A stretch of DNA of 64,000 nt from an uncultured Bacillota bacterium (GCA_963804645.1 CAWDRG010000009.1:544001-608000), one strand, 5' to 3'. Positions 45,982-48,654 are shown, numbered from the stretch's first letter. The notes: generated by a model not told the origin, from the sequence alone. Numbers and translations are program-made.

Positions 45982-48654
45982 GTGTCGGTCCACGCGTTTC
46001 AGGCGCAGCCGCGCACGACGCAGTCGGCTGGCAGGCGCCCCGCGCCCGGGGGGCCCGCCGCAGTGCGCGCCCGTTCGTTTGGGCATCAAGCCGCCCGCGC
46101 GTCCGCACCGTCTCCGCCCGGGCTCGGGCGCGAGGGCGCATCCGAGCCCCCGGCGCTCGAGGAGGATCGCGCGGGCGAGCAGAGTGGGAGCGCGTCCGAG
46201 CGCACGGGCCTTGTGGCCGCCGGCGGAGACGGCGTGCTGCGCCGCAAGTGCGCGTGCGGAGGAGACGCGGGCCCGAGCGGGGAGTGCGAGGCGTGCAAGA
46301 AGAAGCGCGAAGCAACGCTGCAGCGCTCGGCGCGGGCAGGCGCGGCGGGGCACGGCCGTGACCAGGCCCCGGCCGTTGTGTACGACGCGCTGCGGTCGGA
46401 GGGGCGGCCGCTCGATCCGGGTTCCAGGGCGTTCTTCGAGCCGCGCATGGGCTACGACCTCGGCCGCGTGCGGGTGCACACCGGTGCGCTCGCGGCCGAG
46501 TCCGCGCGCGCGGTCAATGCGGATGCGTATACCGTCGGCCGCGACGTCGTGTTCGCGGCGGGCCGGTTCGCGCCGGGGACCGCGGACGGCAGGAAGCTGC
46601 TGGCCCACGAGCTGGCGCACGTGCGTCAGCAGCAGGGCGCGGTAGGGCGGTCGTCCGCCGGTCTCCGCGTCGGTGATCCGGCCGACGCGGAAGAGCGCGA
46701 GGCGAGCACGGCGGCCGATCGCGTGGCGGCCGGCCTTGCGGCTGCAGCGGTCGCCGCGGAGCCGGGCGGCGTACTCCGGCGTCAGACCCCAGGCGACAAA
46801 ACCACGGACGATGACGACTCCGATCAGGGCGCTGCGGAAAAGCCGATCTCTCGGGCTGAAGAGGTTCAGATCTCCAAGACGTCTCCGGGCCAAGTGTCGA
46901 CGACGACACGGCCGACCGTGATCAGCCTCTACAACTTTGCGATCGATGGGGCCGCGCTGAAGCCGGAGCATCGGGCGGCGCTCGCCGAAATCGCCGACAT
47001 CCTGAAAAGCGCGGACGCGAACAAGGTCGGCGTGCTCGTGAAAGGGCATGCCGACTCCAGCGGGTCGGCCGCCGTGAACAAGCCGCTCTCGCAGCGGCGC
47101 GCGGAAGCCGTGCAGCGGGTACTTGCACAGATGGCTGGACGGGCGGTTGATTCGGGCTGGGCCGGGGATACGGAACCCGCGGCCAGCAACAGCACGGTCG
47201 AAGGACGCGATCGAAACCGGCGGGTGGATATCTATTTTCTGCCCCGCGGCGTGGTCGCCCCAGCGCCCCAACCGCAACCGACGCCCCAACCGCAACCGAC
47301 GCCGCAGCCCCAACCGACGCCGCAGCCCCAACCGACGCCGCAACCCCAACCGACGCCGCAACCCCAACCGCAACCGGCGCCCCAACCGAAGCCACCCACG
47401 ACGACCCAGCCGCCGACCGAGGACGATCCATCGTTTTGCGATCGCCATCCCATTATCTGCGGCAGCATCGTGGGTACCGGGGTGGGCGTCGGGACAGGTA
47501 TCGCCTTTTGCATCATGAATCCGGAAGTCTGCCTCGCGCCGGTGCTGCCCGTTCTGCCTGGGTTGCCCGGAGGCGGCGGCACCGAGCCGACGGACACCGA
47601 CACAGACAAAGATAAGGACAAAGATCAGGATAAGGACAAGGACGAGGATAAAGACAAGGAGGAAGAAGACAAGAAGAAGAAACGGCCGCGGCCGTGCCCG
47701 ATTTCCGTCAGGCTGCCTTCCGGGCATCGGAACGCCGTCTATATCCCCGGTCTGAATCGGCTGATCGACTCGTTCTCGATGGAGGTTGACTTCAAGAACG
47801 ACGACACCGGTTGCGACTGCAGTTTGGGCGAGTACAGGCAGATGGTGAAGTGCGTGTTCGCCGAGCGCGACCACGGGACCGGCAAGATGGTGTCGGTGCC
47901 GCCGACAGGCGTCGCGTGCGGACCGGGTGCCAGCGAGCAGGAAGACCTGTTTCAGAGGGGCGGGTTGTTCCCGTACGGCGTCCGCTCCTCGCCGATCGGC
48001 AACATCGACGGCGACGAATTCCAGCCGACGCCGCGCGCGACCGGCTGCGAGTACGAGGGATCTGATTCCCCGGGCATCTACGGGATCAAACCCGGCGAGC
48101 ACGTGCGGTTTCGGTTCGAGTTTCGGGCGGGGCCTGTCGACGCGCGTCTCCGGTCCCTTCACGTCGGCAGCTGGAGCAGCTGGATCTCCGAAGGGGACAT
48201 CACGGCGCCCAAGCCGACGCCGCCCAAGCCTACCCGAACGCCGACGCCCACTCCAACCCCGACGCCCACTCCTACGCCGACGCCGACCCCCACGCCCGCG
48301 CCGCAGCCCAGGATCGCCGATGAGGGGCCGTCGATCGGCCCGGCGCCGGCATCCACGCCTCGGTCCCTGTTCTGTCATCCGGACGGCATCGAACTCGGCT
48401 GCGCGACGCTGGAATTCCTCCAGGACGCCCAGCGTGCGCACTTTACCCCGACCCAGGACGACGTTGACAAGGCGGTCGACATCGAGCAGGACGTGCTGCT
48501 GAAGGCGTTCCCGCCTCCGCCGATGGTCGACATCCACCAGGCGGAAGAGATACAGATGTACATTCTGAACAAGCGGACCGAGGCGTACTGGCGCGTCTGC
48601 AAATTCGCGCAGACGCATTTCATGCCGCTGCCGACGGGGCCGTGTCATCTCTGA
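45982..48654 (+). CDS. DUF4157 (eCIS core, HExxH) multidomain protein: Cys motif, DUF4157, OmpA C-like domain, PQPT linker, TM, DK tract, unknown Cys-containing domain, PT linker
   Basis: GRPL...FFEPRMG.D..VRVHT, AYTVG and LLAHELAHV motifs; OmpA motifs GHADSSG...N..LSQRRA and GRDRNRRVDI. Confidence 0.85.
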   Translation: MSVHAFQAQPRTTQSAGRRPAPGGPAAVRARSFGHQAARASAPSPPGLGREGASEPPALEEDRAGEQSGSASERTGLVAAGGDGVLRRKCACGGDAGPSGECEACKKKREATLQRSARAGAAGHGRDQAPAVVYDALRSEGRPLDPGSRAFFEPRMGYDLGRVRVHTGALAAESARAVNADAYTVGRDVVFAAGRFAPGTADGRKLLAHELAHVRQQQGAVGRSSAGLRVGDPADAEEREASTAADRVAAGLAAAAVAAEPGGVLRRQTPGDKTTDDDDSDQGAAEKPISRAEEVQISKTSPGQVSTTTRPTVISLYNFAIDGAALKPEHRAALAEIADILKSADANKVGVLVKGHADSSGSAAVNKPLSQRRAEAVQRVLAQMAGRAVDSGWAGDTEPAASNSTVEGRDRNRRVDIYFLPRGVVAPAPQPQPTPQPQPTPQPQPTPQPQPTPQPQPTPQPQPQPAPQPKPPTTTQPPTEDDPSFCDRHPIICGSIVGTGVGVGTGIAFCIMNPEVCLAPVLPVLPGLPGGGGTEPTDTDTDKDKDKDQDKDKDEDKDKEEEDKKKKRPRPCPISVRLPSGHRNAVYIPGLNRLIDSFSMEVDFKNDDTGCDCSLGEYRQMVKCVFAERDHGTGKMVSVPPTGVACGPGASEQEDLFQRGGLFPYGVRSSPIGNIDGDEFQPTPRATGCEYEGSDSPGIYGIKPGEHVRFRFEFRAGPVDARLRSLHVGSWSSWISEGDITAPKPTPPKPTRTPTPTPTPTPTPTPTPTPTPAPQPRIADEGPSIGPAPASTPRSLFCHPDGIELGCATLEFLQDAQRAHFTPTQDDVDKAVDIEQDVLLKAFPPPPMVDIHQAEEIQMYILNKRTEAYWRVCKFAQTHFMPLPTGPCHL
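46231..46308 (+). repeat. Dispersed repeat copy 1, encoding the L(R/Q)RKCxCGG...GECEACKxKR motif
   Basis: Aligns without gaps to 49431-49508 with extensive nucleotide identity. Confidence 0.8.
47266..47373 (+). repeat. Coding tandem repeat, 18-bp units (PQPQPT x5, then PQPQPQ)
   Basis: Repeated cc(c/g)ca(a/g)cc(g/c)caaccgacg units. Confidence 0.9.
47593..47682 (+). repeat. Purine-rich low-complexity coding tract (DT/DK repeats, then KKKK)
   Basis: Encodes DTDTDKDKDKDQDKDKDEDKDKEEEDKKKK. Confidence 0.85.
48208..48306 (+). repeat. Coding Pro-Thr tandem repeat
   Basis: Encodes PKPTPPKPTRTPTPTPTPTPTPTPTPTPTPAPQ. Confidence 0.85.

Follow-up and report, generated by a model that had tools for sequence, protein, structure and literature searches.

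In a 64,000-nucleotide stretch of DNA from an uncultured Bacillota bacterium (GCA_963804645.1 CAWDRG010000009.1:544001-608000; hereafter, the window), the gene at 45982-48654 on the plus strand encodes a multi-domain protein of 890 amino acids (aa) that is a candidate cargo of an extracellular contractile injection system (eCIS). The gene closes the 3′ end of a complete eCIS operon on the same strand, with a DUF6519 tail-fibre gene two genes upstream. Its product is a variant within the known DUF4157-marked eCIS effectors, distinguished by a conserved chassis, consisting of an OmpA-like domain followed by a hydrophobic segment, and by an undescribed but widespread domain (aa 568-745), which we call the C-domain. 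The identities of the domains, their conservation, the linkage to eCIS and the interchangeability of the modules are established. We favour the reading that the protein is a modular and polymorphic eCIS cargo that is loaded into the particle, docks to the wall through its OmpA-like domain, makes contact with a membrane and exposes the C-domain as a payload in the bacterial envelope. Taken as a full chain of events, we regard this as having about an even chance of being correct, while the cargo role alone is considerably more likely.

Modules of the protein and their conservation

The open reading frame (ORF) begins with a GTG codon preceded, about 10 nt upstream, by a purine-rich GAGGGGGGGG stretch, and its GC content at third codon positions (GC3), 0.81, is of the coding type for a window of 70% GC. 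With the whole protein as query, 795 proteins were found at E ≤ 1e-3, of which the top matches are 690-880 aa long and carry both DUF4157 and OmpA; murein hydrolase or peptidoglycan-binding annotations were found on other DUF4157 relatives. An alignment of 14 homologues (36-56% identity) keeps every module, among them the C-terminal domain and the hydrophobic segment with the four cysteines, which supports the gene over its full length; the complete module order is likewise kept in a set of 45 homologues. Residues invariant in this larger set are H209/E210/H213, R373, N412-V415, C572, C611, E617, Q620, E654/D655, Y665/G666, R668 and D678. The NCBIfam scan of the protein gave sub-threshold OmpA-type models only, and no matches for seven neighbouring proteins; in the C-terminal half, Pfam, NCBIfam and a profile search of the PDB detected no known toxin family.

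A preliminary description of the gene, made from the sequence alone, had listed a Cys motif, a HELAH-bearing DUF4157 domain, an OmpA C-like domain at ~46927-47240, a (PQPQPT)5 linker, a Gly-rich hydrophobic stretch flanked by cysteines, a highly charged DK tract, a Cys-containing domain (CDC..GEYRQ..YG..GCEYEGSDSPG), a (PT)n run and a helical tail, with no signal peptide. All of these features were located in the ORF at the positions given below, the absence of a signal peptide being borne out by hydropathy alone. The same description had named the lack of an OmpA profile match as grounds for abandoning its proposal, and the match obtained lies far above the gathering score, as does that of DUF4157.

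The N-terminal leader (aa 1-88; 45982-46245) is rich in Ala, Gly, Arg, Ser and Pro, and its sequence is not conserved among homologues. Its composition, its poor alignment among the 14 homologues and its analogy to the N-terminal domains of the cargo proteins Cgo1 and Cgo2 suggest that it is a disordered loading region. It is followed by a four-Cys motif, RKCACGG..GECEAC (C90, C92, C102 and C105; 46246-46299), which is common to the product of the next gene and also occurs in short C-domain proteins without DUF4157. Next comes the eCIS_core domain PF13699, formerly DUF4157, at aa 143-220 (46408-46641; E 1e-29, 103 bits against a cut-off of 22, covering 78 of the 79 model positions), with HELAH at aa 209-213 inside it. 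When the profile of this domain was compared with the PDB, the best match, which was below threshold (E 0.12), fell on the M48 protease BepA, in its active-site region, and the VgrG2b structure 6H56 was not reached by sequence. Kyte-Doolittle profiles showed no hydrophobic window at the N-terminus or anywhere before aa 490.

The OmpA-like peptidoglycan-binding domain, together with a conserved N-terminal extension, occupies aa 286-420 (46837-47241). Its Pfam core, PF00691, spans aa 319-413 (nt 46936-47220; E 1.4e-16, 61 bits against a cut-off of 27.2), so that the limits given in the preliminary description were essentially right. A comparison of the whole protein with the PDB gave 78 sequences at E ≤ 1, the best being 6jfw (PA0833; E 6e-13); the best 60 of these 78 are OmpA-like in nearly every case, the few others being weak tail matches to chains that are Pro-rich or unrelated. 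The PDB matches of the OmpA domain include, besides PA0833, Rv0899, OprF, YiaD, YfiB and TssL1, and the motif GHADSSG..LSQRRAEAV of our protein aligns to GYTDSTG..LSQRRAQSV of PA0833. An Asp and an Arg of OmpA-like domains bind diaminopimelate (DAP) (PMC5974059); at the corresponding positions, R373 never varies among the 45 homologues and D358 shows at least 90% conservation. More specific models were not matched above threshold: TIGR03350, the OmpA model of type VI secretion systems (T6SS), scored 54.8 bits against a cut-off of 139.8, the DotU-family model NF005444 scored 44.2 bits against 520, with the match confined to the OmpA part, and the model for YiaD-type glycine-zipper/OmpA lipoproteins, NF053611, scored 86.7 bits against 175, over profile positions 83-205 only. 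In contrast to the lipoproteins of this last model, the Gly-rich segment of our protein lies C-terminal to OmpA and a signal peptide is absent.

A Pro/Gln/Thr linker (47242-47421) separates the OmpA-like domain from the hydrophobic segment and contains five exact copies of PQPQPT (aa 429-458), seen in the DNA as an 18-bp unit repeated in tandem 5.9 times with 95% matches (47264-47370). The segment itself (47431-47565) has the form CDRHPIIC, hydrophobic Gly-rich core, CIMNPEVC, followed by a Pro-rich stretch; the core, IICGSIVGTGVGVGTGIAFCIM, corresponds to aa 491-512 and lies between C486/C493 and C510/C517. The only 19-residue Kyte-Doolittle windows above 1.6 in the whole protein are found here, at aa 490-525, with a peak of 1.82. 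Hydropathy of at least 1.6 in such windows is found in 42 of the 45 homologues and a CX5-7C...CX5-7C frame in 31; the recurring unit of the frame is C-x2-[H/N]-P-x2-C, of which some relatives carry extra copies. AlphaFold2 models the segment as two short helices (aa 483-498 and 503-512) with a predicted local distance difference test (pLDDT) score of 63-73. In two relatives, P0202 and P0221, a C-x3-P-x2-C unit occurs about five times in tandem, joined by CAC; their framing cysteines are possible disulfide staples, metal sites or lipidation sites.

Two further tracts flank the C-domain. The D/K/E-rich tract before it (aa 531-567, with 12 Asp, 11 Lys and 5 Glu; 47572-47682) ends in the basic cluster KKKKRPRP and is predicted to be disordered (pLDDT < 50), and the Pro/Thr linker after it (48217-48351), also of low pLDDT, contains the (TP)n run at aa 753-770. 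Like the PQPQPT linker, both tracts show as tandem repeats in the DNA.

Structure of the C-domain and the tail

The C-domain (47683-48216) matches no Pfam or NCBIfam model, and a Pfam scan of 14 C-domain segments gave nothing relevant. From a 23-row alignment, AlphaFold2 predicts an all-beta fold, a beta-sandwich, with a pLDDT of 87.5 and a predicted template modelling score (pTM) of 0.83; a second model, of aa 480-890 from a 45-row alignment, shows a confident C-domain and a three-helix tail, with the D/K and Pro/Thr tracts disordered. The preliminary description had proposed per-domain structure prediction with Foldseek searches, which thus yielded a confident model of the C-domain and no convincing structural relative. 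With the C-domain model, Foldseek found no match at E ≤ 1e-3 in either the PDB or BFVD. With the model of aa 480-890, it found seven in the PDB, all EcpA or CfaE pilins, at template modelling (TM) scores of at most 0.30 on the target and a root-mean-square deviation (rmsd) above 10 Å; we take these as a generic sandwich likeness. The C-domain profile gave a single chance match in the PDB (E 0.33), and the ESM Atlas held no usable match. G-E-Y-x-Q, D655, D695 and D720 are invariant in the 23-row C-domain set, and the invariant polar residues of the domain in the homologues (E617, Q620, E654/D655, Y665, R668 and D678) suggest that they form a defined site.

The C-terminal tail ("tail A"; 48352-48651) is predicted by AlphaFold2 to consist of three helices (aa 807-819, 825-842 and 851-879) in a block with a pLDDT of 80-96. 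Only long, OmpA-bearing proteins or N-terminally incomplete ones have this tail, or an alternative tail B, after the C-domain, which the tail may modulate. Family, ESM Atlas and fold searches returned no matches for it; ESM Atlas hits to terpene-synthase fragments (0.87) were rejected as being at chance level, with few shared features, and we claim no relationship of the tails to the small partner family described below, since the hhalign probability was ≤ 1.8% for every pair.

Distribution of the C-domain

The C-domain is found far beyond proteins of this architecture. A word-index search for short relatives of aa 566-745 found a single protein and its profile version 75, all unnamed or "hypothetical". 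A profile built from 23 C-domain sequences had 1075 matches among 1.84 billion cluster representatives at E ≤ 1e-3, a number that fell to 681 and 208 when the limit was set to 1e-10 and 1e-30. Among 139 new proteins listed from this search, 110 are shorter than 480 aa and carry the C-domain at the C-terminus; only one of the 110 has a hydrophobic N-terminus. Pfam found no domain in 84 of these short proteins, eCIS_core in 17, OmpA in four, TIG in two, and PG_binding_1 and hemopexin in one each. The source names seen for C-domain proteins are all "hypothetical" or "uncharacterized".

To place the domain in its genomic setting, we scanned one genome per species with a 14-row C-domain alignment, which gave 22 loci across many phyla, all matching the C-domain hidden Markov model (HMM) at 49-236 bits. 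The host proteins are of the DUF4157+OmpA type in eight loci, short (230-353 aa) in another eight, and fused to three hemopexin repeats in four Streptomyces loci; of the remaining two, one (L007) has OmpA without DUF4157 and the other (L002) is cut at a contig end. The L007 protein keeps the leader, OmpA, the hydrophobic segment and the C-domain, and several short forms begin with an LQRKCxCG..C..C leader yet have no DUF4157. In the 163 C-domain proteins collected, a biased set drawn from the whole-protein and cluster-representative searches, our own HMMs found the domain alone in 84, DUF4157 and OmpA in 45, DUF4157 in 23 and partial combinations in 11.

Contractile injection system (CIS) or tail genes lie within 10 kb of the C-domain gene in 14 of the 22 loci, 13 of them detected by tblastn with the CIS proteins of the window and one (L008) by Pfam (Baseplate_J and Tail_P2_I). 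In most CIS-linked loci (L001, L003, L004, L010, L012, L016 and L017 among them), the DUF4157 or C-domain cargo genes are situated between the AAA ATPase and the spike module, whereas in the window and in L005, they sit after the tail-fibre and DUF6734 genes. The cargo cassettes thus sit in two different slots of otherwise syntenic operons. The C-domain is thus a mobile module, found mostly alone behind the cargo leader in eCIS loci.

Some loci are notable for their gene content. Loci such as L006 (8399-10927 and 11026-13608) and L004 (~15069-15335) hold two DUF4157+OmpA genes, with up to eight successive DUF4157 genes. In the four Streptomyces loci (L014, L019, L021 and L022, near 9065-10471), in which the C-domain is joined to three hemopexin repeats, neither a signal peptide nor nearby CIS genes were seen; a large DUF6603 protein follows the hemopexin C-domain gene in L019 and L021, L022 has large ORFs in those positions, and L019 and L022 have a BTAD regulator gene no more than about 6 kb away.

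A reused chassis and exchangeable payloads

The chassis is also found without the C-domain. Among 27 DUF4157+OmpA proteins that lack it, 11 have the same Cys-framed hydrophobic segment immediately after OmpA, and none of the 11 matches the C-domain HMM or, in its C-terminal part, any Pfam model above cut-off. Nine of them share a second C-terminal family of about 400 aa, six closely, with 44-61% mutual identity (P0021, P0025, P0028, P0030, P0067 and P0071), and three distantly (P0073, P0064 and P0070). Thus, one chassis of DUF4157, OmpA and hydrophobic segment bears at least two unrelated end modules, and the C-domain is found behind at least four kinds of N-terminal part. Because the chassis swaps payloads and the C-domain swaps N-terminal parts, the family follows the logic of polymorphic effectors.

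A second connection to peptidoglycan is provided by P0196 (253 aa), in which PG_binding_1 is fused directly to the C-domain, so that this domain occurs joined to two unrelated peptidoglycan-binding domains. As for the OmpA linkage, a FastTree tree of the 163 C-domains required nine changes, whereas 43-48 were needed in the first five of 200 shuffles of the labels; given that labels are shared among relatives and that the set includes fragments, we use this test only as a hint that the long, OmpA-bearing forms may have few origins.

Short and hemopexin forms are accompanied by a small conserved gene, located directly 3′ of the C-domain gene and often overlapping it, in nine of the 12 such loci. 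The ORFs (L009 10437-10805; L011 3418-3855; L012 10395-10859; L013 10487-10843; L014 10435-10782; L017 10390-10761; L019 and L022 10414-10818; L021 10363-10767) encode 116-155 aa with a conserved core of about 115-135 aa. The same family is fused to the C-domain itself, N-terminally in P0226, P0206 and P0251 and C-terminally in P0238 and P0234. Pfam found no family in seven of these proteins, and their HMM detected nothing in the window or in any long-form locus. The product is a candidate immunity or partner protein.

How the protein might act

By analogy with known lumen cargo, the disordered four-Cys leader, helped or followed by the zincin-like DUF4157 domain, would send the unfolded chain into the tube lumen, with the assistance of the AAA ATPase of the operon. 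The released particle would then contract on a bacterial target and expel the chain into its envelope, where the OmpA-like domain, judging from its conserved binding residues, could bind DAP-type peptidoglycan and hold the protein in the wall or periplasm. The Cys-framed hydrophobic segment, set off from OmpA by the long Pro-rich spacer, might insert into or permeabilise the adjacent membrane. The C-domain would be the functional payload in the envelope, possibly modulated by the helical tail.

The preliminary description had left two options, an envelope tether for the CIS or a cargo that docks on target peptidoglycan or membrane and presents one or two toxic domains. The second is supported by the N-terminus, which resembles that of lumen cargo, by the adjacent paralogue and the alternative payloads, and by the mobility of the C-domain behind cargo leaders in CIS loci. 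The proposed toxic domains hold up only by half: the region at aa 568-745 proved to be real and novel, but its fold resembles a beta-sandwich more than a known enzyme, and the tail is a small three-helix unit. A bolder version, in which OmpA and the hydrophobic segment form a self-contained delivery device that fixes the injected chain to the peptidoglycan of the target and threads swappable payloads into or across the neighbouring membrane, the C-domain is an antibacterial toxin of a new fold and the small partner (~115-135 aa) of the free-standing forms is its immunity protein, is in our view speculative and rather unlikely to hold in full.

Several observations weigh against the envelope-directed cargo that we favour. 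No activity can be assigned to the C-domain, whose nearest folds are pilin- or Ig-like sandwiches (TM 0.24-0.30, rmsd > 10 Å) and not enzyme-like. No immunity-like gene follows the gene in the window, and eight of the 22 loci have no CIS gene nearby (the four Streptomyces hemopexin loci, L007, L013, L018 and L020). The glycine-zipper pattern [GAS]xxxGxxx[GAS] is present in the window protein yet in only 20 of the 45 homologues; the conserved feature of the hydrophobic segment is rather the CX6C framing. To be loaded, a folded protein of 890 aa that contains a hydrophobic segment would have to be held soluble in an unfolded state. In addition, OmpA occurs 30 times in eCIS operons without being enriched there (odds ratio 1.36, false discovery rate 0.75; PMC8213781, supplementary file 4).

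Very little is known about eCIS cargo that is injected into bacteria and about the route that such cargo takes to its compartment after expulsion, and the present family, in which a cargo-type N-terminus precedes a peptidoglycan-binding domain, a conserved membrane-like element and a swappable end domain, offers a concrete case that can be tested. If our reading is correct, it would add a peptidoglycan-docking step for OmpA-bearing eCIS cargo, of which we found no description in the literature searched, provide a reusable chassis for engineering periplasm-directed payloads, and give a function to an unannotated domain with 1075 matches in the cluster representatives. If the model fails, the family would still illustrate cleanly how domains are shuffled among DUF4157 proteins.

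Alternative explanations

The main rival keeps the cargo role and places the toxicity elsewhere. The DUF4157 domain would act as a zinc-metallopeptidase-like domain in the target periplasm, where OmpA would concentrate it, and the C-domain and tail would be accessory or binding parts. In its favour, the HExxH motif is invariant in the 45 homologues, the toxicity of the VgrG2b C-terminal metallopeptidase and of Tpe1 is confined to the periplasm and depends on their HExxH residues (PMC6899460), and the C-domain resembles only adhesin-type beta-sandwiches. Nevertheless, 84 of the 163 C-domain proteins have no DUF4157 and are still found in cargo positions, and L007 retains every other part of the chassis together with the C-domain. 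Moreover, the toxicity of Cgo1 is independent of its HExxH motifs (PMC8894135), many unrelated toxin domains accompany DUF4157, and the profile of the domain fails to reach 6H56. We therefore consider it unlikely that DUF4157 is the toxic part, and less likely still that the protein has one of the two producer-side roles that follow.

One of these is a lysis or release factor, in which, at a late stage of particle production, the hydrophobic segment would perturb the membrane of the producer while OmpA and the C-domain act on its wall, allowing the particles to escape. It is known that eCIS particles are released by lysis, to which effectors may contribute (PMC8213781), the operon showed no Pfam domain of the holin or endolysin kind, and the gene stands at the operon end with no immunity gene after it. 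Against this, the organisation of leader and DUF4157 is that of lumen cargo, the short forms have an immunity-like partner gene, and a swappable payload on one chassis with many paralogues per locus suits effectors and not housekeeping lysis; we judge this role improbable. The envelope tether of TagL, TssL or MotB type, which would fix the machine to the membrane and peptidoglycan of the producer, draws on the fact that known peptidoglycan anchors combine an OmpA-like domain and a membrane-like segment, on the presence of TssL1 and other T6SS OmpA-like chains among the PDB matches, and on SalCIS, an "eCIS" that a transmembrane protein reportedly keeps at the inner membrane (bioRxiv 10.1101/2025.06.01.657177). 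However, the scores for TIGR03350 and the DotU model fall well short of their cut-offs, hydropathy shows neither a signal peptide nor an N-terminal anchor, and OmpA would stay cytoplasmic because the hydrophobic segment comes after it. The domain content is also variable and polymorphic, the position of the gene varies between loci, and the operon encodes a DUF6519 tail fibre, which is typical of released particles. This half of the earlier proposal is thus disfavoured, and we consider a tether very improbable.

Comparison with known systems

DUF4157 has been described as the eCIS core domain, situated N-terminal to or beside toxins and serving as a marker of eCIS-associated toxins (PMC8213781, PMC11297309). 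The closest analogues of our protein are Cgo1 and Cgo2, the DUF4157 proteins that fill the tube lumen of AlgoCIS (PMC8894135), in which the disordered N-terminal domain is required for loading and DUF4157 is dispensable (bioRxiv 10.64898/2026.05.27.728243). They share with our protein the order of disordered N-terminal domain, DUF4157 and variable C-terminal domain, as well as the pairing of genes in the eCIS cluster. In contrast, our protein exceeds Cgo1 in length, with five modules beyond DUF4157, and its loading into the lumen, as seen for Cgo1 and Cgo2, is a proposal. The Cgo1/Cgo2 papers do not mention a Cys-framed segment, the C-domain or an OmpA domain, with no search for the word "OmpA" made in them. 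This word is absent from the main text of the eCIS surveys searched for it, PMC8213781 and PMC11297309 among them, and a full-text literature search turned up no description of a DUF4157-OmpA-hydrophobic architecture in eCIS cargo.

A precedent for pairing DUF4157 with a wall-binding module does exist in EAT14, which consists of DUF4157, LysM and a transglutaminase (PMC11297309, Table 1); in our protein, by contrast, the wall module is OmpA-like and the terminal domain belongs to no known family. The T6SS proteins VgrG2b (its C-terminal domain) and Tpe1 also have an HExxH domain, with relatives that are often annotated as DUF4157, and act in the target periplasm (PMC6899460), which fits a periplasm-directed protein with a peptidoglycan-binding domain. 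Unlike our protein, they ride on VgrG/PAAR or as T6SS cargo and have a small immunity gene, and, as noted, the VgrG2b structure 6H56 was not matched.

With OmpA-like anchors such as PA0833, YiaD, Pal, MotB, the long form of TssL and TagL, our protein shares the OmpA C-like fold and the DAP-binding Asp and Arg positions. It differs from them in falling below all NCBIfam equivalog cut-offs, in having no signal peptide, lipobox or N-terminal transmembrane segment, and in carrying OmpA inside a protein of the cargo type. For the hydrophobic segment, Tde1, a T6SS DNase effector of Agrobacterium, offers a precedent for a Gly-rich hydrophobic segment ahead of a payload domain, given that it requires its N-terminal glycine zipper to permeabilise the membrane and enter the target cell (PMC10240207). 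In our protein, however, the segment has an internal position between two CX6C pairs, and the zipper pattern is limited to a minority of the relatives, as mentioned above.

Genomic surroundings

The rest of the eCIS operon (22201-42257, plus strand) encodes, by Pfam, a BTAD regulator, sheath, tube, a Pvc16_N cap, the AAA ATPase, a spike with an OB-fold, gp25 and two Baseplate_J proteins, and the island is bordered by ordinary metabolic and ABC-transport genes. Between this part and our gene, on the same strand, lie the tail-fibre gene, marked by DUF6519, and a DUF6734 gene (together 42304-45933). DUF6519 corresponds to "eBAP5", a baseplate-anchoring domain of eCIS tail fibres in a 2026 catalogue (PMC12923769), and because such a fibre is encoded, the system looks like a released, fibre-bearing eCIS. 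L005 repeats the order of the window, with baseplate genes, a homologue of orf40419, DUF6519, DUF6734 and the homologue of our gene. The DUF6734 gene itself (44971-45933, plus strand) is tightly coupled to the fibre gene and has a counterpart with 58% identity at the same position in L005; its product could be involved in the assembly or modification of the fibre.

Downstream, a short ORF at 48787-49122 (plus strand) was considered as an immunity gene and rejected, given its GC3 of 0.69 and its resemblance to a leader fragment. It has no Pfam match, opens with PIGAVDDPLEHEADAIAEQ, a copy of the leader motif of DUF4157 proteins, and looks like a leader fragment left by a rearrangement of cargo genes, not a gene. 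The next gene (49056-50495, plus strand; eCIS_core E 1.7e-31) is a second cargo candidate with the same leader, Cys motif and DUF4157 and an unrelated C-terminus. It shows 55% identity to our protein over aa 79-223, which covers the Cys motif and DUF4157, and nothing beyond; its leader motif, LRVGAVDDPLERQAD, is followed by these two elements and then by about 220 aa without a family match. This gene probably begins further downstream than 49056, with the Met before QRKLRVGAVDD near 49314 as one candidate start.

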